Origin: an uncultured virus (IMG/VR IMGVR_UViG_3300022926_000008)
Lineage: Duplodnaviria > Heunggongvirae > Uroviricota > Caudoviricetes
Length of the DNA: 20,000 nucleotides
Virus record (IMG/VR): IMGVR_UViG_3300022926_000008
Strand: one strand, 5' to 3'
Shown: piece by piece, positions 1 to 15,713 of the stretch
Position numbering within the stretch: position 1 is the first letter of the stretch
Layout: the number at the start of each line of letters is the position of its first letter
Notes under the pieces: model-generated
Databases searched by the model: none
The model's input: only the letters and a program-made list of their open reading frames with translations
Told to the model about the DNA's origin: nothing
Program-made: the position numbers and the translations under genes

Positions 1-2
1 AA

Positions 3-515
3 CCGAAGATCGAGGGACCAGTCGACCTGTCTGAGGTTAAGCAGTGGATCCAGAACCTTAGGAGGCTCGGTCTTGATATCGGAATGGTATCCTTTGACCG
101 CTGGCAGTCATTCGATATTCAGAATGAGCTTAAGGCCGTGGGTATGAGAACCGAAACTGTTTCCGTAGCTAAGAAACACTATGAAGACATGGCAATGCTA
201 ATTTATGAAGAGCGTCTAGTAATGCCTTCTATCGATCTTTTGTTCGAAGAATTGACAGAGCTAAAGATTATGAATAACAACAAGGTCGACCACCCACGCA
301 AAAAGTCTAAGGACCTAGCAGACGCTGTCTGTGGTGCTGTGTTTGGTGCGATTTCTCACACTCCCAGGAACCGCAATCAAGAAGTAGAGATTCATACCTT
401 CAGGGACAGGCCGAAGGTTAATGTTGCGGACCTACCAGACAATGTGATAAACTATAGACCCAAGGAAATGACAGACGATGTTCGGAGCTACTTGGACCAG
501 TTTGGTTTAATTTAG
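3..515 (+). CDS. Terminase large subunit, C-terminal nuclease domain (5'-truncated by window edge)
   Basis: Frame is open from position 3, so the ATG at 84 is internal. Motifs SFDRWQS and KVDHPRKKSKDLADAVCGA resemble the RNase H-like terminase nuclease domain. Confidence 0.8.
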   Translation, partial: PKIEGPVDLSEVKQWIQNLRRLGLDIGMVSFDRWQSFDIQNELKAVGMRTETVSVAKKHYEDMAMLIYEERLVMPSIDLLFEELTELKIMNNNKVDHPRKKSKDLADAVCGAVFGAISHTPRNRNQEVEIHTFRDRPKVNVADLPDNVINYRPKEMTDDVRSYLDQFGLI

Positions 516-530
516 CACAAAATATTGTGT
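515..530. promoter_or_regulatory. NrdR box 1
   Basis: GCACAAAATATTGTGT matches the NrdR consensus acaCwAtATaTwGtgt at 14/16 and lies directly upstream of nrdI-nrdE-nrdF. Confidence 0.7.
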
Positions 531-545
531 GTTTTTTCAGGGTAA

Positions 546-561
546 ACAGCAGATGTAGTAA
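546..561. promoter_or_regulatory. NrdR box 2 (weaker)
   Basis: ACAGCAGATGTAGTAA, 10/16 to consensus, starts 31 bp after box 1 (typical tandem spacing) and abuts the nrdI SD (AAGGAG). Confidence 0.55.
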
Positions 562-576
562 AAAAGGAGTGTACAA

Positions 577-976
577 TTGATACCTATTGACATTGTATAC
601 TTCTCAAATTATTCGGGAAATACTAAGAGATTTGTGGAGAGACTAGATGGAAACCGTGGTTATCGTATTCCTATCGATACTAGGAGTGATAATGTCGTTG
701 CAGTTGATCGGGAGTTTGTTCTTTTTGTACCTACTTACGGTGGTGGCGAAGCTAGAACAGCGATCCCCCGACAAGTACGACATTTCTTAAATGTCAAACA
801 GAACCGAGAGCTGCTCCGTGGAGTAGTCGGTCTTGGCAATACCAATTTTGGTGAACATTACTGCAAGGCTGCAGAACTTATTTGTGAAAAGACAGGGGTA
901 CCGTTGATCGCAAGAGTAGAAGTATTTGGTACCAACGAAGACGTAGACAAAGTAAAAGAAAGGCTGAACCTACTAT

Positions 977-993
<17 letters not shown>
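577..993 (+). CDS. nrdI: Class Ib ribonucleotide reductase flavodoxin NrdI
   Basis: [20 protein letters not shown] and [10 protein letters not shown] motifs; TTG start after AAGGAG; directly upstream of nrdE. Confidence 0.95.
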
Positions 994-4053
<3,060 letters not shown>

Positions 4054-4085
4054 TGTATAATAGAAAAGACAGATAAGGAATTATT

Positions 4086-4901
4086 GTGTACAAAGAAAAC
4101 AGAACTTTAGACTGGATCCCACGGTTTGATGAGAGATCCAAAAACTATCCTATTAGACCGCTGCTTGGCACAAGGCGTACAGCAAGGAAAGCTACCTTTT
4201 GGCAAGAAGGAACAGTCCTAGACCAAGGTGCTGAGGGTGCCTGCGTAGGATTTGGCTGGATGGCAGATGTCTTGGCTAAGCCAGTTGCTCCAGAACAACA
4301 GCCAGCTGAAGAGCTTGGCAATTCATTGGCACAGTTCTATTATAAAGAAGCACAAAAGGTTGACCAGTGGGATGGCGAAGACTATGAGGGTACTTCTGTT
4401 CTAGCTGGTGCTAAGGTAATGAAAGAGTATGGTCTTATTTCAGAGTATCGTTGGTGCTTCTCTGTAGAAGATATCATTGATGCAGTATGTTTAAAGGGCC
4501 CAGTAGTCTTGGGTGTTCCATGGTTCCAGTCAATGTACCGCACATTGACTGGCGGTCTTGTTTATATTGATACTACAAAAGAGCCAGTCGGCGGACACTG
4601 TATTACAATTACTGGGTATGATCCTGCCATGCAAATTGGAAGGCAGACACTTGAGGTATTTAGATGGAGAAATTCTTGGGGCCACGACTATGGCGATGGA
4701 GGATCTGGATACATTAAGGTTTCAGACCTTAAAAGACTTTTTGAGCACGGGCAGGGTGCAGAAGCCTGTATTCCTCTAGTGAGAAACAAGCCAGTTCTTG
4801 AGTTCCCACCACGCAGCATTATTAAGAAGAGAACCTTCTGGGATATTCTACTTAATGCTGTTATTCAGTGGATTAAGTTTAGGTTCTTTCCTAACGGCTA
4901 G
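4086..4901 (+). CDS. Papain-like (C1 family) cysteine peptidase
   Basis: DQGAEGACVGF (oxyanion Gln, catalytic Cys), GGHCI (His), RNSWG (Asn); GTG start; aromatic, amphipathic C-terminal tail. Confidence 0.88.
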   Translation: MYKENRTLDWIPRFDERSKNYPIRPLLGTRRTARKATFWQEGTVLDQGAEGACVGFGWMADVLAKPVAPEQQPAEELGNSLAQFYYKEAQKVDQWDGEDYEGTSVLAGAKVMKEYGLISEYRWCFSVEDIIDAVCLKGPVVLGVPWFQSMYRTLTGGLVYIDTTKEPVGGHCITITGYDPAMQIGRQTLEVFRWRNSWGHDYGDGGSGYIKVSDLKRLFEHGQGAEACIPLVRNKPVLEFPPRSIIKKRTFWDILLNAVIQWIKFRFFPNG

Positions 4902-4930
4902 TTGACAAAGCTCATGCAGTCATATATACT
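4902..4930 (+). promoter_or_regulatory. SigA/sigma70-type promoter for the tRNA cluster
   Basis: TTGACA (4902-4907), 17 nt spacer, TATACT (4925-4930), 13 nt before tRNA-Asn. Confidence 0.8.
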
Positions 4931-4943
4931 GGTTGCATGACAT

Positions 4944-5015
4944 TGGCCACTAGCTCAACGGCAGAGCAGAGAGCTGTTAACTCTAAGGTTCCTGGTTCGA
5001 ATCCAGGGTGGCCAG
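4944..5015 (+). tRNA. tRNA-Asn (GTT)
   Basis: Acceptor TGGCCAC/GTGGCCA, anticodon loop CT-GTT-AA (4976-4978), T arm CCTGG-TTCGAAT-CCAGG; no encoded CCA. Confidence 0.95.
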
Positions 5016-5016
5016 C

Positions 5017-5065
5017 GGACCCCTATCCTAGCATCACTCAACGATATTTCACTGGATAGGGGTTC
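5017..5065 (+). other. 12-bp inverted repeat (hairpin) filling the Asn-Trp tRNA spacer
   Basis: GGACCCCTATCC (5017-5028) pairs with GGATAGGGGTTC (5054-5065) with one G-U; no U tract follows. Confidence 0.6.
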
Positions 5066-5067
5066 AT

Positions 5068-5138
5068 ATCGACCAAGTGTTACGGTAGCACGGCGGTCTC
5101 CAAAACCGTAGGACTAGGTTCAATTCCTAGGGTCGGTG
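5068..5138 (+). tRNA. tRNA-Trp (CCA)
   Basis: Acceptor ATCGACC/GGTCGGT, anticodon arm GCGGT-CT-CCA-AA-ACCGT (5100-5102), T arm CTAGG-TTCAATT-CCTAG; A at position 8 instead of U. Confidence 0.9.
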
Positions 5139-5152
5139 CGATAATTAAATAT

Positions 5153-5226
5153 GGTCTTGTAGCTCAGTTGGTTAGAGTGCCGCCCTGTCACGGCGGAGGT
5201 CGCGGGTTCAAGTCCCGTCAAGATCG
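5153..5226 (+). tRNA. tRNA-Asp (GTC)
   Basis: Acceptor GGTCTTG/CAAGATC, anticodon arm CCGCC-CT-GTC-AC-GGCGG (5187-5189), T loop TTCAAGT. Confidence 0.96.
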
Positions 5227-5229
5227 CGA

Positions 5230-5302
5230 GCCTCTGTAGCTCAGGGGACAGAGCAATGGACTTCTAATCCATGTGTCGTAGGTTCGAATCCTACCAGGGG
5301 TA
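5230..5302 (+). tRNA. tRNA-Arg (TCT)
   Basis: Acceptor GCCTCTG/CAGGGGT, anticodon arm ATGGA-CT-TCT-AA-TCCAT (5263-5265), T arm GTAGG-TTCGAAT-CCTAC. Confidence 0.94.
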
Positions 5303-5309
5303 CGAGTTA

Positions 5310-5318
5310 TGGTAGAAT
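5310..5318 (+). promoter_or_regulatory. Extended -10 promoter upstream of katG
   Basis: TGG-TAGAAT; the same TATGGTAGAATA string recurs at 19676-19687 before another gene. Confidence 0.55.
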
Positions 5319-5357
5319 ATAAGTATACTTTTATAGATAAGAAAGAGAGAGTATAAG

Positions 5358-7943
5358 ATGAGCGATGAGCCAAAATGCCCATTTCCGCATGAAAAGGTGC
5401 AAGGTGCCAAAGCACTAGCTACTGGTGAAAGTGCTAGAAAGTGGTGGCCAAATCAAGTTTCTGTGGATGCACTGCAACGCAATGGACAGAACAACAGCCC
5501 TTTTGAGAAAGACTTTGACTATTCAAAGGCTTATTCGGAGCTAGATCTCGAAAATTTAAAAAGCTTTGTGTTCGCCCTGATTACAAATTCTGGTCCAAGG
5601 TATGAAGAGGCAATTGCCGCTAGAGGTTTGGATGCAATGCCGTATGGTCAAAAGTACTGGTGGCCAGCCGACTGGGGGCACTATGGCCCTCTGTTTATTA
5701 GGCTAGCTTGGCATGCTGCTGGAACCTATAGAGTTAGTGACGGTCGTGGCGGTGCTGGCAGGGGAATGATTAGGATGGCCCCTCTTAACTCTTGGCCAGA
5801 CAATGTTAATCTAGACAAGGCAATGAGAATTCTGTGGCCAGCTAAGGAAAGGTTTGGAGACGGGATCAGCTGGGCTGACCTGTTTATTTTGGCAGGTAAC
5901 CTTGCTCTGGAGTCAATGGGATTCAAGACACTGGGCTTTGCTGCAGGACGAATTGATTCGTATGAAGAAGACGATACGTACTGGGGCAACGAAACTGCAT
6001 GGCTAGCTAATGAGAGACATCGAGAGCAGACTATTCTAGATAACCCATTAGCAGCAACCCACATGGGATTAATCTATGTTAATCCAGAAGGCCCAGATGG
6101 CAATGCTGAAGATTTTACTGGGGCTGCTAGAGATATTAGGATTACATTTGGCCGAATGGCAATGAATGATGAAGAGACCGTTGCCCTTATTGCTGGAGGC
6201 CACGCTTTTGGTAAGGCACACGGCAATGGTGATCCATCTAAGGTCGGTGAGCCGCCAGCAGGAGCCCCCATTGAGCAGATTGGGTTTGGTTGGAAAAATG
6301 CTAATGGCAAGGGCAATGCTGAAGATACCGTGAGCAGCGGTCTTGAGGGGGCATGGACCCCAACACCCACCACTTGGGATAACAAGTACCTAGAGCTTTT
6401 GTATAAGTATGAGTGGCAAAAGGTTTTAAGTCCAGCAGGAGCACAGCAGTGGGAGCCAATTGACTGCCAGCCAGAAGATATGGTTCCAGACGCACACGTT
6501 AAGGGCAAGATGAATAAGCCAATGATGCTTACGACAGATCTAGCCCTAAGATTTGGCGACCCAGAATATGATCGAATTGCAAGATCTTTTGCAGAAGACT
6601 TCGATCGCTTCTCAGATGTTTTTGCCAAGGCATGGTTCAAGCTAACTCACCGTGACATGGGGCCCCTGGACAGATACCTTGGTGATGAGGTACCAGAAGA
6701 AGTATTTACTTGGCAAGACCCAATTCACAAAAATACTTTCCCTGAAATTACTGATAAAGATATTAATAATTTAAGAGGCAATATTATTAAAGAGCTAGAA
6801 ACTACAGGGATTACCTTAAGCTATAACAACAAGGGGTATATTGAAAATAGAAAGCTTGACGTTCGGGATTTGGTTTTTACTGCCTGGGTGTCAGCCAGCA
6901 CGTATCGTGATAGCGATAGGCGTGGTGGTGCTAATGGTGCAAGGATTCTTCTGGAGCCAATGAAATCATGGGAGTTTGTAGACTATGAGCGTGCCCACAA
7001 AACAGTAACATTTTTGACAGAGATCAGAGACTCGCTAAAGATTGAGATGTCGATCGCTGACCTGATTGTTGCTGGAGGAAATATTGGTGTAGAGATTCTG
7101 GCTAAAAATGCTGGCTTTGAGCTTAAAATGCCATTTGTTGGTGGCCGCGGTGATGCTACTCAAGATCAAATTGATGTCGAGTCTGTAGGTCACCTAGAGC
7201 CAGTACATGATGGTTTCTTGAATTGGACCAAAGTAAAGCGTAGCTATGGCGATGGTGATAGCTCATCTAGTGCCGTTGGCGATGAAGATGGCTCAGTTAA
7301 CGGCTACTTTGGTGTCGAGCTAAGTGAAGACGACCTTGAGCTCTTGCCAATTTTGGGTAATGAAAATACTCAGGCAAACGTTTCTGAAGATTACCCTACT
7401 CTGTATGGTGATGCGACTGCCGATAGCGATGTGTACGTAGAGCTATCTGAAGACTCGTTTGTTCTAGAAGAGTTTGCAGAGTACCTAATGATTGAAAGGG
7501 CAGACCTTCTAAATCTAACTCCTAAAGAGTTGGTGGCATTGCTAACTGTATTTAGATCTGCATCTATTTATCACAGGTCATCTACTCTGAATAGAGACTC
7601 TACGTACTCTCCTGGTGACAATTGGAAGATTGGCACAGAGTTCTTGGAGCACATGGTGCTAAAAAGTTGGTATGCTTGGGAAGAGGCTAAGGAGCCTGAC
7701 GACACTGAAAAGGTAACTACCTACGATCACCCAGCAAAACAATTTATTGGCAAACACCTGCACCCAGATAGCCCAACTTCATTCCGTGCTAGTCGCGTAG
7801 ACCTATTGTTGGCTTCTAATCCTATTTTACGTGGGATCTGTGAGTTCTATACTCAGGCTGGCGGGCTGCAAAGACTAGTAGATGACTTTGCAAGTGCATG
7901 GAACAAGGTCATGATGCTTGACAGATACGACGTTAAGCGATAG
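5358..7943 (+). CDS. katG: Catalase-peroxidase KatG, enlarged (861 aa)
   Basis: KCPF N-terminus, [22 protein letters not shown] (distal Arg/Trp/His), [10 protein letters not shown] (adduct Tyr), [17 protein letters not shown] (adduct Met, proximal His), [20 protein letters not shown] and C-terminal KVMMLDRYD. Confidence 0.96.
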
Positions 7944-7954
7944 AATAAAGGATC

Positions 7955-8028
7955 GCCCTCTTAGCTCAGCTGGCCAGAGCAACGCACTTGTAATGCGTAG
8001 GTCATCGGTTCGAATCCGATAGAGGGCT
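7955..8028 (+). tRNA. tRNA-Thr (TGT)
   Basis: Acceptor GCCCTCT/AGAGGGC, anticodon arm ACGCA-CT-TGT-AA-TGCGT (7989-7991), T arm ATCGG-TTCGAAT-CCGAT. Confidence 0.96.
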
Positions 8029-8049
8029 CGACAATAAACAGGAGAGAGA

Positions 8050-8769
8050 ATGACAACATATATTAGGACAACTCCAGAACCAATCGATGTCCTTGACGAG
8101 GGCTATGTACGCCTCGTAGACGTGCTAGGAGACGATCTGGCGGTAGTTAATGCTGCTAGAGTTTCTTACGATAAGGAGAAAAACGAGTTTGAGGAAAGGG
8201 ATGCAAAGCTACTGAAGTTTTTGCTTAGAGAGCAGCATACAAGTCCTTTTAGACATGCAGCCGCAACCTTTGAAGTTTATGCCCCACTATTTGTTGCAAG
8301 GCAATGGTGGAAATATGCGGTAGCTTCTACGCATGTAGATGAGCAAAATGGCTGGAATGAATCTTCTAGGCGTTACATTACTGAGGATGAGAAGTTCTAC
8401 ATCCCACTACCAGACCAATGGCGTAGTAAGCCAGAGAATAGCAAGCAGGGCTCAGGTGAGCCAGTAGACGAAGAGCTGGGCCAGAAGTACTTTGAGATGC
8501 TCTGTGAGTCTGTGGTACAGGGGACTGAGGCATATCACATGGCTATGGATGATGGCATTGCCCCAGAGATTGCTAGACTATTCCTACCAGCATACGGCAT
8601 GTACGTACGTTGGAGATGGACTGTTTCGCTCCAGGGCATTCTAACGTTCCTTGACCAGCGTATTGAGCATGATGCACAGTGGGAAATTCAGGAGTATGCA
8701 AAGGCAGTTCGTAAACTAACTAAGGAAGCATTTCCAGAAACAATCAACATGCTATACGAGGAGGCGTGA
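8050..8769 (+). CDS. thyX: Flavin-dependent thymidylate synthase
   Basis: VVNAARVSY, HTSPFRH, PLFVARQW, WNESSRRY, APEIARLFLP and HDAQWEI motifs. Confidence 0.93.
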   Translation: MTTYIRTTPEPIDVLDEGYVRLVDVLGDDLAVVNAARVSYDKEKNEFEERDAKLLKFLLREQHTSPFRHAAATFEVYAPLFVARQWWKYAVASTHVDEQNGWNESSRRYITEDEKFYIPLPDQWRSKPENSKQGSGEPVDEELGQKYFEMLCESVVQGTEAYHMAMDDGIAPEIARLFLPAYGMYVRWRWTVSLQGILTFLDQRIEHDAQWEIQEYAKAVRKLTKEAFPETINMLYEEA

Positions 8770-8969
8770 TGTCAGATTCAAAAAAGCAAAGCCTGACCAA
8801 AACCATTAGTTGGCAGATTTGGCACTTTGTAGTTATTGCTAGTATACTTTACTTTGTTACTGGAGAGTGGGAGTATGCTGGCCTAGGTGCCATTGTCTAT
8901 ATCACTATAGAGGCATTAGGGTTTTATGCCCATGAAAGACTATGGGCAAAATTTGGCAGATTAAAGTAA
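8766..8969 (+). CDS. Small membrane protein, DUF2061-like
   Basis: KTISW...YAHERLW pattern with two hydrophobic segments; start GTG 8766 or ATG 8769. Confidence 0.7.
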   Translation: MMSDSKKQSLTKTISWQIWHFVVIASILYFVTGEWEYAGLGAIVYITIEALGFYAHERLWAKFGRLK

Positions 8970-8971
8970 TC

Positions 8972-8980
8972 TGTTATAAT
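8972..8980 (+). promoter_or_regulatory. Extended -10 promoter
   Basis: TGT-TATAAT upstream of SD AAGGAGG and the small ORF-nrdH pair. Confidence 0.6.
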
Positions 8981-9002
8981 TATTAAACAACAAGGAGGGG
9001 TA

Positions 9003-9131
9003 ATGGAGAACGTAATGTTTATTGTTTGGCACAGCTTGGCTATTGTTTTGCTGTCTGTGTCTTCTTATGGTATTGGCTATCAAGTAGCCAAAGATGGCCT
9101 AAAAAATATTCTAATTAAAAAGGAGAACTAA
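9003..9131 (+). CDS. 42-aa single-pass membrane protein (not in ORF track)
   Basis: MENVMFIVWHSLAIVLLSVSSYGIGYQVAKDGLKNILIKKEN; strong SD; stop overlaps the nrdH start (TAATG). Confidence 0.7.
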   Translation: MENVMFIVWHSLAIVLLSVSSYGIGYQVAKDGLKNILIKKEN

Positions 9132-9355
9132 TGACAACTGTCTACACTAAAAACAACTGTGTCCAGTGCGACATGACTAAAAGACTAATGGATAAGATCG
9201 GTGTTGAGTATGATACTGTGAATATCAGCGAAGATGCAGACGCACTGAATAAGTTAATTGAGATGGGTTATAAGGCGGCCCCAGTTGTCATGACTGACTC
9301 TGGAGATTCCTGGGCAGGCTTCCAACCTGATAAGATTACTGAGCTAGCAGCCTAA
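9131..9355 (+). CDS. nrdH: Glutaredoxin-like NrdH redoxin
   Basis: VYTKNNCVQC, APVV and WAGFQPDKI; 74 aa. Confidence 0.93.
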   Translation: MTTVYTKNNCVQCDMTKRLMDKIGVEYDTVNISEDADALNKLIEMGYKAAPVVMTDSGDSWAGFQPDKITELAA

Positions 9356-9810
9356 CTGTGATCTAGCTCAAAGCTCCCCGCGATATGAAAACTATCTGCG
9401 GGGCTTAGCTTTATGGGGGAGTTATCGCTATCTGAGAATGGAACGTGCTGGCCATTAGAGCTAATCGAATAAAGCCCCATAATGTCTGAACCCTCTATTA
9501 CGTGTCCAAGAATTGCATATTGGTTTCCGCTAGAGAAATCATGTAGGCAGCCATCACTTAAAATAATATTATGATTAGCAGCAAAAGGTAGCTTCATGTA
9601 ATACTGCCCAGTTCCAAATGTAAGAATATTATCCATGTCTACATCAATAGCAAAGTGACATAGGTTTCCAATTACTGTGTAGTGTCCAGTAAACAGCGGA
9701 TTGCTACTAAACGTTGGTTGTGGGTCAGACAGTGTGCCACCCTCAATAGTCCAGGAGCCGTTATCAGAACTACCAGATTGCCAAATGGAGGGGTGTGTGA
9801 ATCTGGCCAT
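9352..9810 (-). CDS. Hypothetical beta-rich protein, possibly fibre/receptor-binding head-like domain
   Basis: 152-aa ORF coupled to the upstream ORF; GHYTVIGNLCHF...YMKLPF and final GSFEL strand recall phage fibre head domains (inference). Confidence 0.6.
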   Translation of the reverse strand: MARFTHPSIWQSGSSDNGSWTIEGGTLSDPQPTFSSNPLFTGHYTVIGNLCHFAIDVDMDNILTFGTGQYYMKLPFAANHNIILSDGCLHDFSSGNQYAILGHVIEGSDIMGLYSISSNGQHVPFSDSDNSPIKLSPADSFHIAGSFELDHS

Positions 9811-10088
9811 TACTGACCCTGCTCTAGCTTAATATTGAGAACTGCAGCATACATGCCAGATGTTTCTCCAATTAGGTAAAGATCATCCATCCCAGATAGC
9901 TCAAAAGAGATGGCGTGATTAGGAAGAATTCTATAGCCAAAATTTGTTTGCGTAACATCGTGGCCACCAACGTATACGTAGCCAGATGCATTTACGTTCT
10001 GGATTGTAATGTCCATTCCAGAGTGAGTTCCGTCTGGAGTAATTTTTGTGGGGGTAACTCCAACCTCATATAATCTGTGTGTAGTCAT
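9810..10088 (-). CDS. Hypothetical phage protein (leaderless)
   Basis: 92-aa ORF; TGA-TATAAT lies 6 nt before the ATG; stop overlaps the next start. Confidence 0.7.
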   Translation of the reverse strand: MTTHRLYEVGVTPTKITPDGTHSGMDITIQNVNASGYVYVGGHDVTQTNFGYRILPNHAISFELSGMDDLYLIGETSGMYAAVLNIKLEQGQ

Positions 10089-10105
10089 AATAAAATTATA
10101 TCACA

Positions 10106-10204
10106 TTAGCAATTGTGTGCATCTATTTGTACATATAGATCTTCGCCATTGTCGCCCTGCAGCCTGACCTGACACCTGGGGCAAGTAAAATATAGAGGCA
10201 GCAT
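10106..10204 (-). CDS. 32-aa putative zinc-finger microprotein (not in ORF track)
   Basis: MLPLYFTCPRCQVRLQGDNGEDLYVQIDAHNC with CxxC...HxC; TACAAT 5 nt upstream of the ATG; fills the intergenic gap. Confidence 0.55.
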   Translation of the reverse strand: MLPLYFTCPRCQVRLQGDNGEDLYVQIDAHNC

Positions 10205-10241
10205 ACTCAATTGTAGTTTGTTTTTATGATAAAATAGCTAT

Positions 10242-11021
10242 ATGAAACTCATTAACCCAGCTCCAGGCCGTAAAGTTACCAGTGACTATGGCCCCAGGAC
10301 ACACCCTATTACTGGTCAAAAAGGCAAGATGCATCACGGAATTGACTTTGGCGGAAGCTTCGATGTGCTTGCTGCTGGCGACGGCATTGTTGATCATGTC
10401 GGCTGGTCTCCAAAAGGCGGAGGGCATGTTGTTAGAATTAAGCACGCATCTAATCTTTATACTGTTTACTATCATGGCAAGAATGCTACCAAGTTTAAGG
10501 TAGGGGATCGCATTAAAGCTGGCGAGGTTGTATACCGTAGCGGATCCACGGGTGCTAGCACAGGGAACCACCTCCACTTCGAATGCCGAAAAAGTGCCCG
10601 TTGGGGAGATAGCGTAGATCCTAATCTTTATATTAATAATAATGTTGTAGACCCTAAGGTAAAGGGTAGCGTCGGTGGCCCAGAAAATGCAGCTCGCCAT
10701 CAGTATGCCCTGAAGGTAGACGGCAAGATGGGCAAGAATACTTGGAGGGCATGGCAGAATGCACTTAAGGAAAATTTTGGCTACCGAGGAATTGTGGATG
10801 GTATTCCAGGCAAAATGACTTGGACTGCAATTCAAAAGTCTGGTCTCAAGTTTGGCTATAACGCAAAGTATGTGGATGGTAAGCCTGGGGCTAACACCAG
10901 AAAGTCCGTACAGAGGCGTTTGAAGGCCACTGGGGACTACCGTGGACCCCTTGACGGCATCTGGGGACCAAATACAATCAGTGCACTTCAGCGGGTACTT
11001 AACAAAGGACTGTATAAATGA
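10242..11021 (+). CDS. Endolysin: M23 peptidase plus repeated peptidoglycan-binding domains
   Basis: HHGIDF and HLHFE zinc motifs; C-terminal DG-x-x-G-x-x-T repeats (VDGKMGKNT, VDGIPGKMT, VDGKPGANT, LDGIWGPNT); leaderless after TGA-TAAAAT. Confidence 0.9.
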   Translation: MKLINPAPGRKVTSDYGPRTHPITGQKGKMHHGIDFGGSFDVLAAGDGIVDHVGWSPKGGGHVVRIKHASNLYTVYYHGKNATKFKVGDRIKAGEVVYRSGSTGASTGNHLHFECRKSARWGDSVDPNLYINNNVVDPKVKGSVGGPENAARHQYALKVDGKMGKNTWRAWQNALKENFGYRGIVDGIPGKMTWTAIQKSGLKFGYNAKYVDGKPGANTRKSVQRRLKATGDYRGPLDGIWGPNTISALQRVLNKGLYK

Positions 11022-11380
11022 TTAATAGTTTAGTCGAAGTATATAAAAGGCTGCGAGAGAATGCGGCACAGAATAAAAAGATATCAGACGATGCAATTGC
11101 ACAGGGCCCATCATGGAGGCACCGCCGTAGGCTAATCTATGGTGCATACTTCCTGGCAGTGTTTATGATCCTTTACGGTGCTTTCAGCCTTTTTACTGAA
11201 AGCCAAGTAGGTGTTGAGCTTGTAGTGGGCGGTGTCGCACTTCTATCTATTATCGTAACAGCCTACACAACATCAGCAACCTATGAAGATGTCCGCATCT
11301 GGAAAAGATCGGGACCAACCTCAAAGGTTCTTGACGACCCATCAGATCAGTTTGACACAGATAACCCAGATGGTGTATAA
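11018..11380 (+). CDS. Two-TM membrane protein, putative holin or lysis accessory
   Basis: Overlaps the endolysin stop; basic RHRRR followed by two hydrophobic helices. Confidence 0.65.
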   Translation: MINSLVEVYKRLRENAAQNKKISDDAIAQGPSWRHRRRLIYGAYFLAVFMILYGAFSLFTESQVGVELVVGGVALLSIIVTAYTTSATYEDVRIWKRSGPTSKVLDDPSDQFDTDNPDGV

Positions 11381-11381
11381 T
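11352..11381 (+). promoter_or_regulatory. SigA-type promoter upstream of r1t-like holin
   Basis: TTGACA (11352-11357), 18 nt spacer, TATAAT (11376-11381). Confidence 0.65.
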
Positions 11382-11408
11382 TAATAAGTTAACGAAAGGA
11401 ATGATTGT

Positions 11409-11654
11409 ATGATCATGACAGTAGCATTTTGGAAGTCCGCTGGAGAGCGAGCAATTAAAACAGCAGCACAGGCTGCAATTGCTCTCCTAGGAACTGACCA
11501 GTTCGTATCTGCTTTGGATGTAAACTGGACCGAGGTTGGTGGCATCGCATTGCTAGCGGGAGTTCTATCAATTCTAACATCAATTGTAGTACCAGCAGCA
11601 GAGACCAAGGCAGCCGTAGTTGCTGAGCTAGCACAGAAGGCAAGCAAGAAGTAA
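11409..11654 (+). CDS. Holin, r1t family
   Basis: FWKSAGERAIKTAAQ...VNW...AGVLSILTSI pattern typical of r1t-like holins. Confidence 0.85.
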   Translation: MIMTVAFWKSAGERAIKTAAQAAIALLGTDQFVSALDVNWTEVGGIALLAGVLSILTSIVVPAAETKAAVVAELAQKASKK

Positions 11655-11656
11655 CC

Positions 11657-11842
11657 ATGCCTATTTACCAGTACCAATGTGCTGGTTGCAATGAAATAGT
11701 AGACAAGATCAGGGGGATCAATGAACCCGAACCTCCTGGTCTTGTTTGCGATTCATGCAACAGTAATTTAAAGAGATACTATGCTAGCGGGGCATTTGGG
11801 GTTCAGTTTAATGGAAGCGGATGGGCAAGTAAAGACAAGTAA
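11657..11842 (+). CDS. FmdB-family zinc ribbon protein
   Basis: MPIYQYQCxxC...CxxC...FNGSGWASKD. Confidence 0.85.
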   Translation: MPIYQYQCAGCNEIVDKIRGINEPEPPGLVCDSCNSNLKRYYASGAFGVQFNGSGWASKDK

Positions 11843-11845
11843 GAC

Positions 11846-11874
11846 TTGACATCCCATAGTAAAGCAGTTATAAT
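11846..11874 (+). promoter_or_regulatory. Perfect consensus SigA/sigma70 promoter
   Basis: TTGACA (11846-11851), 17 nt spacer, TATAAT (11869-11874); heads the run of small overlapping genes. Confidence 0.85.
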
Positions 11875-11911
11875 AATAGAGACAATATAAACCACTAACA
11901 ATGGAGAAGTA

Positions 11912-12136
11912 ATGAGCACTGCAACACTAGAAAAAAAGCTAGAGAGACAGCTTACTATGCAGGATCGCTGTGATGCTGACTGTGGGTCACAGGCCTATGT
12001 AAGGGTAGAGGGTAGCACTGGAGAACTTTTGTTCTGTGCACACCACTATAATAAAATTATGAGTGACCCTACTGGGTACATTGCAATGACAAGCTTTGCA
12101 ACCAATACTATTGACGAAAGGGAGCATCTTTCTTAG
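11912..12136 (+). CDS. Small actinobacterial-type Cys/His protein
   Basis: LTMQDRCDADCGSQAYVRV...ELLFCAHH resembles a small conserved actinobacterial zinc-binding family; SD GGAG. Confidence 0.7.
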   Translation: MSTATLEKKLERQLTMQDRCDADCGSQAYVRVEGSTGELLFCAHHYNKIMSDPTGYIAMTSFATNTIDEREHLS

Positions 12137-12558
12137 TGGAGTATTTAATTGGAGCTTTGTTCATGTTGGGGGCATTGGTTGCTGCCAACAGGTTCATTCG
12201 TGAGCCGTACCTAGAGGCTCGCACAACAAAGCTCAAATATACTCAAAGCCACATTCATAGCCTGCTATCTCCTTTGTTGCAGTATGTACCAGAGGACAGG
12301 CCAAGGGTAGAGACACAATCTAATAATTTTGTAAGAAATTCTTATGTGCGTGTTCTGGTAATGGATGACTCTGCTTATTGGATTAAAGATCATTCTTTAT
12401 TTACTGCAGATCTTGTTGACGGAGAAGTTGCAAAAGAAACTACTCGTAAAGTTGACACAATGGCTATGAGTAAGGTAGAATTAGACAGGACAATGTTTAT
12501 TGTCGAAAAGCTTAGAGAGGGACTAGACAATGCTGATGGCGGTACAGGGAAGCCATAA
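12136..12558 (+). CDS. Hypothetical protein with N-terminal TM anchor
   Basis: GTG start overlapping the previous stop; hydrophobic N-terminus. Confidence 0.7.
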   Translation: MEYLIGALFMLGALVAANRFIREPYLEARTTKLKYTQSHIHSLLSPLLQYVPEDRPRVETQSNNFVRNSYVRVLVMDDSAYWIKDHSLFTADLVDGEVAKETTRKVDTMAMSKVELDRTMFIVEKLREGLDNADGGTGKP

Positions 12559-12883
12559 CTTTGGCGACTACAACATCTTCTTGCGTGCAATGTATACTGC
12601 CTTGTACACAATGAAGGAAGATGACAAAGACATTTTTATTTATACTGCAGGGCCAGTTAAGGTAAACAACATGGCCTTGGAGTTTGCCAACATCACGGAG
12701 AACAGTCTCAAGGCTAGGGGCATTAAAATCCAGACCCGCAGAGTAACAAAGCAGTGGGTAGAGGACAACATGTCTGATCTTGACTATTTTGCTTTCTTTA
12801 GCAAGCCTGGAGAGCCAACGTCTAGCCTAGTGGATGCTGCAGATAAGCATGGAGTAGAGGCACAGGTGTACACGTTCTCATGA
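12530..12883 (+). CDS. Hypothetical protein, possibly SLOG/YspA-like
   Basis: N-terminal AVQGSHNFGDY resembles the GSR-x-F-x-DY loop of YspA-type SLOG proteins; the family call is tentative. Confidence 0.55.
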   Translation: MLMAVQGSHNFGDYNIFLRAMYTALYTMKEDDKDIFIYTAGPVKVNNMALEFANITENSLKARGIKIQTRRVTKQWVEDNMSDLDYFAFFSKPGEPTSSLVDAADKHGVEAQVYTFS

Positions 12884-13242
12884 GTTTAAGTAAGAGTGAG
12901 CAGGCATTCCTGTCCGTGGCAAGATATTTTGCAGCAAAGTCTGAGGCAAATAAAAAGCACGGTGCAGTTATCGTAAGGTCTGGCAGTGTCATTGGTAGGG
13001 GCTACAATAAAGATACCAATAACCCAATGACTGTTTCGCCAGAGCATATTAAAACACACTGCTCACGACACGCGGAGATCGAAGCAATCCGCGATGCAAA
13101 TTGGAGAGTTGACGGGGCTATCCTGTATGTTGCGAGAGTCAACAGGCAGGGGCAGGACCGTAACAGCAAGCCTTGCAAATATTGCGAGCTTGTTATTAAT
13201 GAAACAAAAATAAAAAAAGTAATATATACAAGGGAAGATTAA
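12880..13242 (+). CDS. Zinc-dependent cytidine/dCMP deaminase-family protein
   Basis: HGAVIV, GYN, HAE and PCKYC motifs. Confidence 0.88.
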   Translation: MSLSKSEQAFLSVARYFAAKSEANKKHGAVIVRSGSVIGRGYNKDTNNPMTVSPEHIKTHCSRHAEIEAIRDANWRVDGAILYVARVNRQGQDRNSKPCKYCELVINETKIKKVIYTRED

Positions 13243-13243
13243 A

Positions 13244-13453
13244 ATGTTAGTATCATCGCTTGACAAGATGGAAGACATCGTAAATAAGAATAAGAATCTT
13301 CGATGGAATGGCTGGGATATAATTTATTCATATCCTACTGATAAAGCCAGGACATCTAAATTTGGTGCCAGAGTGAATGGGGTCTGGCACATGCAAAGAA
13401 TCTTTAAGCTCAATTCCGAAGGATGGCATATCCCCAAGAATTATGTGAGTTAA
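13244..13453 (+). CDS. Hypothetical protein
   Basis: 69-aa ORF tightly packed in the operon; Trp-rich. Confidence 0.7.
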   Translation: MLVSSLDKMEDIVNKNKNLRWNGWDIIYSYPTDKARTSKFGARVNGVWHMQRIFKLNSEGWHIPKNYVS

Positions 13454-13456
13454 GGC

Positions 13457-13753
13457 ATGGAGAAGCACAGCTGGAAAGAAAAAGCAGCGTGCCTTGGCTG
13501 GGATACTAATTTCTTCTTTGATAAGTATGAAGAGGATGAAACTGGAACATTCAGGCAGAGCATTGATAACCTATGTAAAGGTTGTCCAGTAGCGAGGCAG
13601 TGTTTTGCTGTTGGCATCTCACAGAAAGAGTGGGGTATTTGGGGAGGAGTCTACATTGAAAATGGAAAGATCTCCAGAGAGTTTAACAGGCATCGCACTA
13701 AAGAAGATTGGGCAGACACTTGGCAGTACCTAACTATGGAGCAAAAGAAATGA
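13457..13753 (+). CDS. whiB: WhiB-family Fe-S transcription factor
   Basis: AAC...FF...CKGCPVARQC and WGIWGG turn; four Cys. Confidence 0.9.
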   Translation: MEKHSWKEKAACLGWDTNFFFDKYEEDETGTFRQSIDNLCKGCPVARQCFAVGISQKEWGIWGGVYIENGKISREFNRHRTKEDWADTWQYLTMEQKK

Positions 13754-13857
13754 CTTTACTAATAGTACAAGTATTGATCTTGCTTGGTGTTTGGGTAAAC
13801 GTAGCCTTGGGCCTAATAGCACTGAGAGACAGGAGAAAATCTCGTGGCATACACTGA
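13750..13857 (+). CDS. 35-aa membrane microprotein (not in ORF track)
   Basis: MTLLIVQVLILLGVWVNVALGLIALRDRRKSRGIH; ATGA overlap with the whiB stop; one TM helix then a basic tail. Confidence 0.6.
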   Translation: MTLLIVQVLILLGVWVNVALGLIALRDRRKSRGIH

Positions 13858-14083
13858 TGAGATGAAGCGTGCAGCAAGATCGCTAACACCACCGCAAGGC
13901 TTCTATGTTGATATAATTGACAATGAACACTTTTTGTCCATTAGGGCAAGCGAAGAAGTGTTTATGAGATTGGATGACTTTGGTAAGCGACGTGCTGTAG
14001 AATATATGGTAAAGCTTAAGAAAGCACTAGAAGAAAACGGAGCAGTGGTTTTGCTAGTAAGAGAAGGCGGAGCAGAGCAATGA
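13844..14083 (+). CDS. Hypothetical protein
   Basis: GTG start after AGGAG; 79 aa. Confidence 0.7.
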   Translation: MAYTDEMKRAARSLTPPQGFYVDIIDNEHFLSIRASEEVFMRLDDFGKRRAVEYMVKLKKALEENGAVVLLVREGGAEQ

Positions 14084-14472
14084 TGATAGTGGAAATCATA
14101 GTAGCAACAATAGTTGCTATTATTATTAGCTTTTTGACAATTAGCAACATTAGAATGCGGCTAAAGAATAAAAGCCTAGCTACTTTGGCAACTCAGGCAG
14201 AGCTTGATCGAGTAACTGTCTATGAGCAGGCACAACAAATTTTTGCTGAAGAGCACGCAAAGGGTTCTTCTAGTGATGGTTTTATTAAGTTTATGTCTAC
14301 TTCTAGAGACTGGGCCTTCGAGTATATTGAAACTGTACAGAGAGACCTTTACGAGCTGAAGGCCTACCACGAGTTCCATGGGGCAGCCCCCAAGACTGTA
14401 GCACAAGCTAACGAGCTTAATAAGATTATCTTAAAGCTTATCGACAACCTACCGAAAGATGAGAAGAAATAA
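14080..14472 (+). CDS. Hypothetical protein with N-terminal TM helix
   Basis: Hydrophobic N-terminus then helical region; overlaps both neighbours. Confidence 0.7.
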   Translation: MMIVEIIVATIVAIIISFLTISNIRMRLKNKSLATLATQAELDRVTVYEQAQQIFAEEHAKGSSSDGFIKFMSTSRDWAFEYIETVQRDLYELKAYHEFHGAAPKTVAQANELNKIILKLIDNLPKDEKK

Positions 14473-14873
14473 TGTTTAGATATAATGCAATTGTAGACAA
14501 CGTAGTAGACGGCGATACTGTAGACCTATCTATTGACCTAGGCTTTGACGTGTGGCATAGAGCTCGTGTCAGGCTTATTGGAATTGATACTCCAGAAAAG
14601 TGGCATGACTACGGCAAGGTCGTAAAGAAATACGTTGCAGACTGCCTAGAGTTCAAAGAGATTGAAATCACTAGCACCAAGGCTGACAAGTATGGAAGAT
14701 ACTTGGTAGAGATTTATCTTGATGGAGGCGAGGGCACATTTAATCAGCACCTCATTGATGTTAATATGGCCAAGGGATACGAGGGTGCCTCCAGGGCAGA
14801 CCTTTGGACAGAAGAAGAGCTTGCCTTGCAGGATCATGAGCTTCTTGTAAATAAGCTTGACTTCTCAGACTAA
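14472..14873 (+). CDS. Thermonuclease (SNase-like) family nuclease
   Basis: VVDGDTV, RVRLIGIDTPE and DKYGRYL motifs; no signal peptide. Confidence 0.9.
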   Translation: MFRYNAIVDNVVDGDTVDLSIDLGFDVWHRARVRLIGIDTPEKWHDYGKVVKKYVADCLEFKEIEITSTKADKYGRYLVEIYLDGGEGTFNQHLIDVNMAKGYEGASRADLWTEEELALQDHELLVNKLDFSD

Positions 14874-14885
14874 CTGCAGTAAAAT
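14857..14885 (+). promoter_or_regulatory. SigA-type promoter
   Basis: TTGACT (14857-14862), 17 nt spacer, TAAAAT (14880-14885). Confidence 0.65.
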
Positions 14886-14905
14886 AGATACAAAGAGAGA
14901 GAGAC

Positions 14906-15379: not shown

Positions 15380-15713
15380 TGCTTTCGATGAGTACGATGG
15401 ACTTAGCGAAGAAGAAAAAGAAATTGCCCAGCAGTTCTATACCCTGGGATTTGAAGAAGGCTATGATCAGGGCTATGATACGTGTGAGCTAGAAAGTAGC
15501 TCCTATACTGATGGAAAAGATGTGGGTTTCCAGGAGGGCATCCAGCTTGAACGTAATCGTGTCTACCAAATTTGTTCTATGCAAATGGAGTGGGCAGAGC
15601 AAAACAACAAGGGGCGAGACTATATCTTCTGGAAAAATGTCAGGGAAGTCTTGCAGCCAAAAGACTTTGAGCCAATGTCACAAGAAGAATACGACGAATG
15701 GATTAATGAATAG
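15369..15713 (+). CDS. Acidic hypothetical protein with GxxxG repeats
   Basis: Start moved to ATG 15369 (SD GGAGG 15358-15362); GFEEGYDQGYD and GKDVGFQEGI repeats. Confidence 0.7.
   Translation: MSADAFDEYDGLSEEEKEIAQQFYTLGFEEGYDQGYDTCELESSSYTDGKDVGFQEGIQLERNRVYQICSMQMEWAEQNNKGRDYIFWKNVREVLQPKDFEPMSQEEYDEWINE

Follow-up and report, generated by a model that had tools for sequence, protein, structure and literature searches.

Gene content of the locus

The DNA analysed here (hereafter the window) is a 20,000-nt stretch of the IMG/VR record IMGVR_UViG_3300022926_000008. The gene order is terminase, nrdIEF, tRNAs, katG, a further tRNA, thyX, lysis genes and whiB, such that viral genes lie on both sides of katG (Table 1). 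The katG open reading frame (ORF; 5358-7943, plus strand) runs from ATG to TAG and encodes 861 aa. It is placed between tRNA-Arg and tRNA-Thr, as had been read from the sequence in the original prediction. The four tRNAs upstream (4944..5303) score 51-69 bits against RF00005, the Rfam scan returned nothing beyond the five tRNAs, and the repeats in 4800-8200 are tRNA-derived or short.

Table 1 Annotated features of the window, with positions in nucleotides from its first base
Feature	Position	Strand	Evidence
Terminase large subunit (TerL) gene, 3' end (last 170 aa)	3..515	+	100% match to end of the 593-aa TerL ORF of L002; weak PHROG terminase matches
nrdI-nrdE-nrdF, class Ib ribonucleotide reductase operon	577..4053	+	Pfam Flavodoxin_NdrI 1.2e-38, Ribonuc_red_lgC 2.4e-161, Ribonuc_red_sm 7.4e-95
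Papain-like peptidase gene	4086..4901	+	phrog_16701 peptidase 1.3e-44; weak Pfam Peptidase_C1
Candidate sigma-70-like promoter TTGACA-17-TATACT, ahead of tRNA array	4902..4930	+	11/12 consensus matches
tRNA-Asn(gtt)	4944-5016	+	ARAGORN; Rfam RF00005
tRNA-Trp(cca)	5068-5139	+	ARAGORN; Rfam RF00005
tRNA-Asp(gtc)	5153-5227	+	ARAGORN; Rfam RF00005
tRNA-Arg(tct)	5230-5303	+	ARAGORN; Rfam RF00005
Extended -10 element TGGTAGAAT, candidate katG promoter	5310-5318	+	Read from sequence; 48 nt before ATG
katG, N-terminal haem (catalytic) domain, aa 1-451	5358..6710	+	5l05_A alignment; invariant catalytic residues
Clade-specific 20-aa insert in KatG N domain, about aa 79-98	about 5592-5651	+	Alignment
katG, linker and C-terminal haem-less domain, aa 452-861, with stop codon	6711..7943	+	Second Pfam/PDB stretch, aa 808-859
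Hypervariable acidic insert in KatG C-terminal domain, about aa 629-700	7242..7457	+	Alignment of viral KatGs
Candidate sigma-70-like promoter TTGACA-17-TAGAAT, overlapping katG 3' end, ahead of tRNA-Thr	7918..7946	+	11/12 consensus matches
tRNA-Thr(tgt), downstream border of katG slot	7955-8029	+	ARAGORN; Rfam
thyX, DUF2061 membrane protein gene and glutaredoxin gene (nucleotide/redox module)	8050..9355	+	Pfam Thy1 1.4e-37, DUF2061 2.5e-11, Glutaredoxin 1.3e-13
Lysis module: M23 endolysin with PG-binding domain, small ORF, r1t-type holin	10242..11654	+	Pfam Peptidase_M23 2.2e-21, PG_binding_1, Phage_r1t_holin 4.7e-20; PHROG endolysin and holin
whiB, marker of actinobacterial phages	13457..13753	+	Pfam Whib 8.8e-12; phrog_472
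Pyrimidine-dimer glycosylase gene (DenV-like)	14906-15379	+	Pfam Pyr_excise 1.8e-20
Hsp20 gene	15781-16197	+	Pfam HSP20 2.4e-20

Two independent IMG/VR assemblies, sharing 99.66-99.96% nucleotide identity, are co-linear over both katG flanks, and one 3,568-nt contig from another run bridges 5274-8841. The identical KatG protein is found on eight contigs, of which the longest measures 109,363 nt. Variant forms of it are encoded on contigs of 109,219 to 110,069 nt, and all 20 loci encoding the KatG protein have further phage genes in common with the window. Synteny is kept in relatives at 60-66% KatG identity. One relative that carries katG is rated 100% complete by CheckV, at 120,142 bp, and its genes include those for portal, protease, tape measure and replication. 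GC content stays level through katG, and no integrase was found among the 32 ORFs of the window or the 143 ORFs of this complete relative. The concern voiced with the original prediction, that the contig might not be viral or might be chimeric, is answered alike by the independent assemblies, the relatives and the complete genome. Judging by its genes, the phage is a roughly 109-kb WhiB-encoding actinophage; its TerL shares 55% identity with the terminases of Streptomyces phages 131-135 kb in size. The DenV-like and Hsp20 genes recur beside katG in distant katG phages, and glutaredoxin also recurs nearby.

The katG slot and candidate promoters

tRNA-Thr(tgt) lies immediately 3' of katG in 11 of the 14 phage loci scanned and also flanks the empty slot in katG-less relatives. 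In syntenic relatives, the slot (tRNA-Asp to tRNA-Thr) is either empty (53 or 218 nt) or occupied by unrelated small ORFs. None of the 18 TerL relatives that extend 6 kb or more downstream carries katG, and the gene is wholly absent from two relatives that are at least 90% complete. This comparison of loci indicates that katG is an accessory, dispensable cassette and that the part of the tRNA array it occupies is variable.

The extended -10 element that the original prediction assigned to katG is present (TGGTAGAAT) and would act as its promoter. The motif TGnTAnnnT occurs 37-48 nt ahead of the katG ATG in six of 12 phage loci, within divergent intergenic sequence. Contigs of four metatranscriptome libraries cover 26-30 of the 30 window bins about evenly and in both gene orientations, a pattern that transcription or DNA carry-over could each produce and that was left out of the evidence for expression.

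Enzyme identity and domain structure

The katG product matches Pfam PF00141 (peroxidase) in two stretches (E 1.6e-47; 162.8 bits against a cut-off of 27) and passes the NCBIfam equivalog TIGR00198 (cat_per_HPI; 788.2 bits, cut-off 770.25). It falls below the cut-off of NF011635 (PRK15061 catalase/peroxidase subfamily; 867.1 against 981 bits) because it is too divergent for this narrower model. The top sequence match among solved structures is 5l05_A (E 3e-197), a 728-aa chain named 'Catalase-peroxidase' which we take to be Burkholderia pseudomallei KatG, and the alignment covers residues 1-627 and 808-859. Two stretches were returned in each of the Pfam, NCBIfam and PDB searches, in keeping with an N-terminal haem domain and a C-terminal duplicated haem-less domain, and blocks of the C domain align with cellular KatGs around the inserts.

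Residue roles follow from the match to the solved chain and from what is established for KatG. The full two-domain enzyme and active site described in the original prediction were all recovered, with distal R115/W118/H119, the adduct residues M267-Y240-W118, proximal H282/W333/D394 and the switch R432 inside KLTHRD. Together with channel D148 these make ten residues, none of which varies in the alignment of 142 KatGs, viral and cellular. The Met-Tyr-Trp adduct, the mobile Arg switch and the channel Asp are the residues needed for the catalase activity of KatG. At the level of sequence, the ORF is thus confirmed as a catalase-peroxidase, KatG, a member of class I of the peroxidase-catalase superfamily, with a complete catalytic residue set.

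Outside the active site the protein is unusual. It is 133 aa longer than the solved KatG and contains inserts at three places, near aa 79-98, 489-503 and 629-700; phmmer left residues 628-807 unaligned to the solved chain. Together these features point to a C-terminal domain that is complete yet strongly remodelled. The insert at aa 629-700 is acidic (21 D+E against 1 K+R in 80 residues), occurs only in the sub-lineage of the window (P0001-P0009), where its length varies, and is missing from the viral relatives L005, L006 and L008. Relative to 5l05, Ala replaces Thr directly after the proximal His and likewise in the GK(T)HG motif. The first of these changes (A283), along with the remodelled C-terminal domain, could alter or reduce activity.

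The viral KatG family and its cellular relatives

Relatives of the window's KatG are encoded on 151 IMG/VR stretches, and the viral-type gene was identified on at least 78 IMG/VR contigs, which come from many metagenomes. The motif GGHAFGK, in which Ala follows the proximal His, is shared by all 40 viral KatGs and by 0 of 102 cellular ones; it was also found in 78 of 80 further IMG/VR loci, the remaining two giving no ORF under the filter used. F415 is likewise present in all 40 viral proteins, and the window has both A283 and F415. Identities within the family go down to about 50%, a diversity that suggests an old, long-established viral lineage.

The viral katG family is under purifying selection (dN/dS 0.05-0.2). 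Among viral pairs with unsaturated dS, to which the estimates are limited, dN/dS is 0.07-0.19 for the whole gene, and 0.05-0.07 for the N domain versus 0.11-0.21 for the C domain. The window's own sub-clade is saturated, and its katG differs from those of L002 and L003 by 1-3 codons, too few for dN/dS. Across the block, dS is mosaic (NrdE 0.90, glutaredoxin 1.1, M23 1.5; KatG, holin and hyp9352 saturated), which at most hints that katG may have a history apart from that of its neighbours.

The search of viral proteins and the tree with actinobacterial KatGs proposed alongside the original prediction gave the following placement: viral KatGs, together with KatGs of single-contig actinobacterial genomes of 1.27-1.47 Mb, split from all other cellular KatGs with a support of 100/99. 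In the maximum-likelihood tree one branch separates the 22 viral rows from the rest (UFBoot 94, SH-aLRT 69, 96% of 200 bootstrap trees), and an alternative to viral monophyly that joins clade 2 with the small-genome group is not rejected by the AU test (delta lnL 1.46, p 0.435). The window's KatG is very derived, with about 50% identity to any cellular KatG; raw identity is 51.0% to the small-genome KatGs versus 49.5% to those of other cells. By inference, the small genomes look like the acI/Nanopelagicales carriers of KatG 'group A', a KatG described in passages of the reports on it as a weak catalase for which other substrates are proposed (10.1101/343640; PMC7527133). The cellular sister group of the viral KatGs would then include an enzyme reported as weak in the catalase reaction.

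Host and habitat

The host suggested by the original prediction, a streamlined acI actinobacterium, did not find support. When NrdF of the phage was compared with 401 genomes from the Streptomyces class, it matched 37 at 73-78% identity, all of 2.4-9.1 Mb, with no match in any 1.3-1.5 Mb genome of the set, and Hsp20 matched none of the 401. Neither of the two supports an acI host. The sequencing runs containing the phage DNA bear the labels salt marsh or marine rather than lake; three marine metagenome runs, in which 35-41% of the sampled words were present, were left out of this reading of habitat.

The accompanying argument that acI bacteria need added catalase is outdated, since the same group has revised the effect, in the passages concerned, to a supply of haem (plus riboflavin), acI being haem auxotrophs. 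A katG-positive acI strain is described there as more tolerant of H2O2 than a katG-negative one. No haem synthesis genes were found in the phage, and radical-SAM (AhbD-type) PF04055 was found in none of five viral records, two of them complete.

Proposed role of the phage KatG

We consider it probable that the intact, selected katG of this phage works as a catalase-peroxidase that removes H2O2 in the infected cell, and that it is an accessory cassette in an actinophage. Judging from the sequence, transcription would proceed with the nucleotide/redox module, from the extended -10 element and/or the strong promoter before the tRNA array. The predicted 861-aa product, which by its sequence retains the distal Arg-Trp-His, the Met-Tyr-Trp adduct, the proximal His-Trp-Asp and the Arg switch, would take haem b from the host pool; as the phage has no recognisable haem synthesis genes, haem import would be needed in a haem-auxotrophic host. 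KatG would then dismutate H2O2 inside the host cell during infection; as H2O2 passes through membranes, the enzyme may also counter photochemical peroxide from outside, such that host metabolism, Fe-S proteins and phage DNA could be preserved until lysis. The gain would fall to phages whose hosts are without katG or hold a weak one, and this limit would explain why some lineages retain katG while close relatives have lost it.

Peroxide defence during infection, the core of the original prediction, is thus plausible and the most likely role for an intact gene under selection, although the idea had already been published, as an inference from metagenomes. The more specific proposal that KatG protects the phage ribonucleotide reductase (RNR) fares worse. 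The link is not conserved, as katG is not beside nrdEF in other katG phages, and in the complete katG-bearing relative the RNR is of class II and lies at a distance from katG. Directly upstream of katG this same relative has two glutathione peroxidase genes; such adjacency was found in only one of the 21 sequences searched, so it is not a general feature of katG loci.

A different chemistry would also account for the retention of the gene, with KatG serving as a peroxidase or oxidase of a specific substrate, in the turnover of peroxynitrite or organic peroxides, or in the capture or buffering of haem in a haem-limited host, and the viral changes marking a shifted function. The virus-only A283 beside the proximal His and F415, in 40 of 40 viral sequences, would fit such a shift, as would a C-terminal domain that evolves 3-4 times faster than the catalytic domain with lineage-specific inserts and deletions, the poor catalase activity reported for the likely cellular sister, and the haem auxotrophy of the likely hosts. 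However, the residues specific to the catalase reaction are all invariant, the glutathione peroxidase genes adjoining katG in the complete relative point to peroxide removal, and katG is not accompanied in a consistent way by any gene for a substrate or partner. On balance we regard this explanation as unlikely.

It is more doubtful still that katG is a passenger (moron) of little or no benefit, transient in a recombination-prone tRNA slot and heading for loss. Such a passenger would account for the variable content of the slot in syntenic relatives and for the absence of katG from the 18 informative TerL relatives and from the two nearly complete ones. It sits poorly with a viral family that is old and diverse yet keeps every catalytic residue, with its dN/dS, with the number of IMG/VR contigs that carry the viral-type gene, and with a candidate promoter conserved amid divergent intergenic sequence. 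Finally, a bacterial katG joined to phage DNA by misassembly, or a host chromosome or prophage border, might be suspected from the lack of a KatG family in PHROGs and from the seven of 50,697 deposited cultured-phage records that match katG, which, by our own reading of their names and sizes, look like bacterial contigs or fragments, but such an artefact is effectively refuted by the independent assemblies and bridging contig across both junctions, the synteny in divergent relatives, the complete viral genome, the flat GC and the absence of integrase from the ORFs searched.

We tentatively raise a further possibility. Viral KatGs, instead of being recent acquisitions from hosts, may form an old phage-adapted lineage, marked by A283, F415 and a fast-evolving, indel-rich C domain, that moves as a cassette between related phages, with the flanking tRNA genes as homology arms, and has properties unlike those of the weak group-A KatG of the likely haem-auxotrophic hosts, e.g., higher catalase turnover or tighter haem capture. 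If so, a katG-poor cell would become a strong sink for peroxide once infected by such a phage.

This matters as sunlight-made H2O2 is limiting for some streamlined plankton that rank among the most abundant, many of them without katG and unable to make haem. If phages deliver a working catalase-peroxidase, this would shift who removes peroxide from surface waters and which cells survive. The window is a concrete and well-delimited candidate for the validation of viral katG. It brings an intact 861-aa enzyme, sister phages that naturally lack katG and have the slot empty, residues diagnostic of the viral type, and C-terminal-domain variants that form a natural series.

Comparison with known systems

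Viral katG has been reported before. Passages of a lake virome preprint (Zhou et al., bioRxiv 10.1101/2024.02.06.579183) list it among the most abundant freshwater viral auxiliary metabolic genes (AMGs), on viruses of Nanopelagicales (Planktophila/Nanopelagicus), and propose H2O2 decomposition for the host; it also appears in passages on the Elbe estuary virome (PMC13390420), and the relevant entry of a 2025 review gives viral katG as 'Not validated'. The view that katG is not among the usual phage auxiliary genes does not hold against the abundance listing of the preprint and the 151 IMG/VR stretches with relatives. The gene is common and already described, which the original prediction had recognised would lower its novelty, and as it was reported from lake viromes the window is a well-documented example, not a new kind. 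The published AMGs share with the window a gene on phage genomes and the proposed role, and they carry a link to Nanopelagicales. In the main-text passages considered, those papers offer census, abundance and host correlation, whereas the protein, its phylogeny, the tRNA slot, the signature residues and the inserts do not feature in them; the phage of the window comes from runs labelled salt marsh, in contrast to the freshwater viromes of the published genes.

The solved KatG (PDB 5l05 and variants) has its catalytic residues and, by sequence, its two-domain fold in common with the window's KatG. The nearest cellular relatives would be the group-A KatGs of acI/Nanopelagicales, e.g., 'Ca. Planktophila rubra' IMCC25003 (10.1101/343640; PMC7527133), joined to the viral KatGs at 100/99. 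The small-genome cellular KatGs resemble acI group A of the published passages in their DNA-repair neighbourhood and in their length of 724-747 aa. They differ from the window's protein in lacking its three inserts, in keeping GGHTFGK where the viral motif is GGHAFGK, and in having Leu in 10 of 12 at the position of viral F415.

Other phage enzymes have likewise been proposed to raise the tolerance of the host to reactive oxygen species (ROS) while it is infected. Passages of Benler et al. 2021 (PMC8008677) describe manganese catalases and Dps in human-gut phages, and those of Kavagutti et al. 2019 (PMC6802176), the main text of which is without the word 'catalase', describe genes for 'phage-mediated ROS defence' in freshwater phages. 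These enzymes, i.e., di-manganese catalase, ferritin-like proteins, superoxide dismutase, glutathione peroxidase and thioredoxins, are haem-free and unrelated to KatG.

Results

The window katG is a real, intact and phage-borne catalase-peroxidase gene. The original prediction of a two-domain KatG was borne out by a Pfam peroxidase match in two stretches of the open reading frame (ORF) (PF00141, E 1.6e-47), by a score of 788.2 bits with TIGR00198, the KatG equivalog model, whose curated cut-off is 770.25, and by the solved structures nearest in sequence, which are catalase-peroxidases. The top one, 5l05_A (728 aa, E 3e-197), aligns with residues 1-627 and 808-859; the narrower model NF011635 gave 867 bits, below its cut-off of 981. 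The catalytic residues and the switch arginine named in the prediction are all present, i.e., distal R115/W118/H119, proximal H282/W333/D394, the adduct residues M267/Y240/W118 and R432 within KLTHRD, as is the channel D148, and none of them varies in an alignment of 142 KatGs, viral and cellular. The protein is ~130 aa longer than usual and its C-terminal domain is strongly remodelled, containing an acidic stretch; the extra length and inserts had been overlooked. The acidic insert is confined to the window's sub-lineage (proteins 61-96% identical), where it ranges from ~20 to 75 residues, in frame throughout and flanked by conserved blocks.

Features of the katG region in the window, and the corresponding gaps in katG-less relatives
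Feature	Position	Strand	Detail
katG ORF	5358-7943	+	ATG to TAG, 861 aa
KatG insert	near aa 79-98		20 aa
KatG insert	near aa 489-503		15 aa
Acidic stretch, KatG C-terminal domain	about aa 629-700		21 D+E against 1 K+R in 80 residues
tRNA Asn, Trp, Asp, Arg(tct) genes	4944-5303		upstream of katG
tRNA-Thr(tgt) gene	7955-8029		downstream of katG
Candidate promoter	4902-4930		TTGACA-17-TATACT, ahead of tRNA array
Candidate extended -10	5310-5318		TGGTAGAAT, textbook form, ahead of katG
Candidate promoter	7918-7946		TTGACA-17-TAGAAT, ahead of tRNA-Thr
Gap before tRNA-Thr, relative L234	12150-12202		53 nt
Gap before tRNA-Thr, relative L287	6048-6265		218 nt
Gap before tRNA-Thr, relative L228	10777-11220		444 nt
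Gap before tRNA-Thr, relative L219	7316-8127		812 nt

The carrier of katG is a genuine phage. Two contigs assembled in other metagenomes (IMG/VR) run co-linear with window 1-9505 (99.96% nt) and 1628-15582 (99.66% nt) and cross both katG junctions, which were therefore assembled independently; one of them supplies a full 593-aa terminase directly upstream of nrdI. The window holds the terminase end, nrdI-nrdE-nrdF, thyX, glutaredoxin, an M23 endolysin and an r1t-type holin, along with WhiB, a DenV-like glycosylase and Hsp20, and none of its 32 ORFs matched an integrase in Pfam or PHROGs. The exact KatG protein is on record in eight contigs, the longest of 109,363 nt, and near-identical variants lie on contigs of 109,219, 109,312 and 110,069 nt, suggesting a genome of ~109-110 kb. 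The terminase shares 55% identity with its counterparts in Streptomyces phages of 131-135 kb. G410, a katG-bearing relative at greater distance, is a CheckV-100% genome of 120,142 bp with portal, prohead protease, a 3,240-aa tape measure, Pol III alpha, primase, DnaB, RecA and WhiB, and no integrase among the 143 ORFs scanned.

This relative also encodes a set of tailoring enzymes that is unusual for a phage: around ten 2OG-Fe(II) oxygenase paralogues (loci L130-L133; e.g., L130:9282-15446 and L133:9639-15938), a tryptophan-halogenase-family gene (Pfam 4.9e-106), a carbamoyltransferase, a sulfotransferase, an Asp/Asn beta-hydroxylase-like gene, a TauD-family dioxygenase and an AdoMet decarboxylase. 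In the window, the DenV-like ORF (14906-15379) and the ORF that follows it (15291-15713) share 89 nt in different frames. An RNA-library contig (run X12) has five extra nucleotides (AATAG) after position 9130, immediately ahead of the glutaredoxin start, probably a strain variant.

The predicted position between tRNA-Arg and tRNA-Thr was correct, and Rfam at gathering thresholds found nothing in the window besides tRNAs. All 14 phage loci scanned have one or more tRNA genes upstream of katG, and in 11 of them tRNA-Thr(tgt) directly follows katG, with both deep viral clades represented. Four katG-less syntenic relatives have terminase, nrdIEF, tRNA-Asn...Asp, a gap and then tRNA-Thr, the gap being empty or holding unrelated small ORFs (170 and 137 aa). 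The window query found no KatG throughout two relatives that are at least 90% complete (115,083 and 98,649 nt; terminase 82% identical). KatG was encoded by 0/18 terminase relatives with at least 6 kb downstream (among the best 80 of at least 600 matches, 73-100% identity), a set that omits known katG-positive contigs, and this count is not a frequency. The inside of the tRNA array is a gene-turnover site, and katG a dispensable, accessory cassette within it. Synonymous divergence from one relative is mosaic (dS of 0.90 for NrdE, 1.1 for glutaredoxin and 1.5 for M23; saturated for KatG, holin and another ORF), which is compatible with, and no proof of, cassette exchange.

Candidate promoters precede both the tRNA array and tRNA-Thr, and the extended -10 claimed ahead of katG was found as a candidate element. 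Such elements stand 37-48 nt before the katG start in six of 12 loci even though the spacers diverge; in three loci katG starts ~35 nt past a tRNA and the extended -10 is absent, so read-through from the tRNA array is likely there.

The window KatG is a very derived member of a large viral family. As a query it retrieved 20 IMG/VR loci (51-100% identity), all of which have further genes in common with the window, and a search by profile recovered 151 IMG/VR stretches that code for relatives of KatG. The motif GGHAFGK, with Ala directly after the proximal His, occurs in 78 of the best 80 of these, the other two having no ORF under the filter used; 64 of the 78 share another window gene and 54 have tRNAs beside katG. 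Within the tree set the motif marks 40/40 viral or viral-like KatGs and 0/102 cellular ones, which carry GGHTFGK (97), GGHSFGK (2), GGHTVGK (2) or GGHTLGK (1). At position 415, Phe likewise marks the viral proteins (40/40); the nearest cellular group has Leu there (10/12) and other cells have Pro (96%). No PHROGs v4 family matches the window KatG, and the 7 of 50,697 deposited phage records with KatG (~46-51% identity) look, from names and sizes, like bacterial contigs or fragments.

Viral pairs with unsaturated dS (0.14-1.4) gave dN/dS of 0.07-0.19 over the whole gene. For pairs with dS of 0.66-1.6, the catalytic domain had values of 0.05-0.07 and the C-terminal domain values of 0.11-0.21. 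Within the window's own sub-clade dS is saturated, and two near-identical assemblies differ from the window katG by one and three codons.

The cellular sample comprised 401 genomes from the class holding Streptomyces sp. 184 (four unpublished, used in tallies only), of which 274 have KatG. A typical viral KatG has its 12 best matches (68-71% identity) exclusively in single-contig genomes of 1.27-1.47 Mb, with a GC of 47.5-49.4% around katG; in one of these, katG sits between AdnAB-like helicase-nucleases, an exo/endonuclease-phosphatase, a NUDIX protein and UvrD. In the main tree (IQ-TREE, 68 rows, 719 columns, LG+C20 PMSF), viral and small-genome KatGs split from all other cellular KatGs with support of 100/99, and one branch divides the 22 viral rows from the rest (UFBoot 94, SH-aLRT 69, 96% of 200 bootstrap trees); FastTree (142 rows) and a quick IQ-TREE run agree. 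An AU test did not reject the alternative that groups the second viral clade with the small-genome KatGs (delta lnL 1.46, p 0.435), so the case for viral monophyly consists of moderate tree support, the pair of signature residues and the genomic slot held in common. The viral Ala looks derived because the small-genome KatGs retain the general cellular Thr283, and this state would favour cell-to-phage transfer, with the direction not proven. The window KatG is among the most derived viral copies: its mean identity is 51.0% to small-genome KatGs and 49.5% to those of other cells, where a typical viral KatG reaches 69.2% and 63.9%.

Two cellular loci gave broken KatG matches: in an Actinomycetota MAG (G002:C8:23160-25344, L075) the match comes in two overlapping pieces (residues 2-439 and 427-693), suggesting a frameshift or assembly error, and in an Ilumatobacteraceae MAG (G005:C12:40576-42338) a second KatG-like stretch is broken by TGA codons.

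Discussion

An intact, selected KatG is encoded on a phage, with plausible transcription signals, amid nucleotide, redox and stress genes. The phage enzyme would take haem b from the host pool, form the Met-Tyr-Trp cross-link and remove H2O2 inside the infected cell, so that metabolism, DNA and Fe-S proteins would stay protected up to lysis. The repeated presence of DenV, Hsp20 and glutaredoxin genes alongside katG counts as context support for a peroxide role. Directly upstream of katG, G410 has two glutathione-peroxidase genes (L133:2728-6142; Pfam GSHPx 9.1e-09 and 4.7e-38), making a three-gene peroxide cassette found by tblastn in this genome alone (1/21 sequences searched). The proposed protection of ribonucleotide reductase (RNR) did not hold up as a conserved link: other katG phages have katG directly after terminase or far from any RNR, and G410 has a class II RNR elsewhere.

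The proposed peroxide-relief role for phage KatG is sensible and already published. In a preprint on a 20-year lake virome, katG is named among the most abundant viral auxiliary genes, contrary to the original view that it is not a usual one; katG-containing viruses of Planktophila and Nanopelagicus are treated, and H2O2 relief is proposed for viral katG, with viral ahbD for haem (Zhou et al. 10.1101/2024.02.06.579183). An AhbD-type radical-SAM gene was absent from the five viral records searched, two of them complete. Other sources report viral katG genes and transcripts peaking at low salinity in an estuary (PMC13390420), list viral katG as 'Not validated' (a 2025 review), propose 'phage-mediated ROS defence' in freshwater phages in 2019 without catalase (Kavagutti et al. 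PMC6802176), and describe manganese catalases in gut phages (Benler et al. PMC8008677). The literature searched held no biochemical study of a viral KatG and no description of the signature residues, tRNA-array slot or inserts. The value of the window katG is as a clean test case: some sister phages naturally lack the gene, certain residues are diagnostic, and the C-terminal domain comes in a series of variants.

The host can be placed in Actinobacteria from WhiB and the relatives of the terminase; published work and the KatG tree point further, short of proof, to Nanopelagicales. The window NrdF (nrdF, 3100-4053) shares 73-78% identity with genes from genomes of 2.4-9.1 Mb (37/401 of the Streptomyces class) and had no match in the 1.3-1.5 Mb genomes of that sample, so the cellular relatives indicated by the class Ib RNR differ from those indicated by katG; Hsp20 matched 0/401. 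The katG stretch is in 24 listed runs from 22 coded studies, 12 marked as possible sources, and salt marsh metagenome is the label on the runs with most of its words. Four metatranscriptome libraries have contigs over 26-30 of 30 window bins at ≥95% identity, coverage that does not show transcription, and one 3,568-nt contig from such a library spans window 5274-8841.

Among the presumed hosts, two studies report a KatG low in catalase activity in one acI strain, another strain without katG, and two groups of acI KatGs of patchy distribution (Kim et al. 10.1101/343640; Mondav et al. PMC7527133). The claim that acI need added catalase survives in part: the growth effect was later attributed to riboflavin and haem, for which acI are auxotrophic, while a katG-positive strain does tolerate H2O2 better. 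Five 1.4-1.5 Mb genomes (G126, G241, G047, G077, G360; loci L122-L126) carry a second KatG type, 56% identical to the viral one, with GGHTVGK in the two checked, no tRNA within 1.5 kb of katG, and a long branch that sits with sequences of Comamonadaceae, Gemmatimonas and Caldilineaceae. The published 'group B' acI KatG, acquired horizontally, would match this type. The small-genome KatGs nearest to the viral family agree with the published acI/Nanopelagicales 'group A' KatG in genome size, GC, length (724-747 aa) and DNA-repair setting, and from these likenesses we infer that they are Nanopelagicales group A KatGs.
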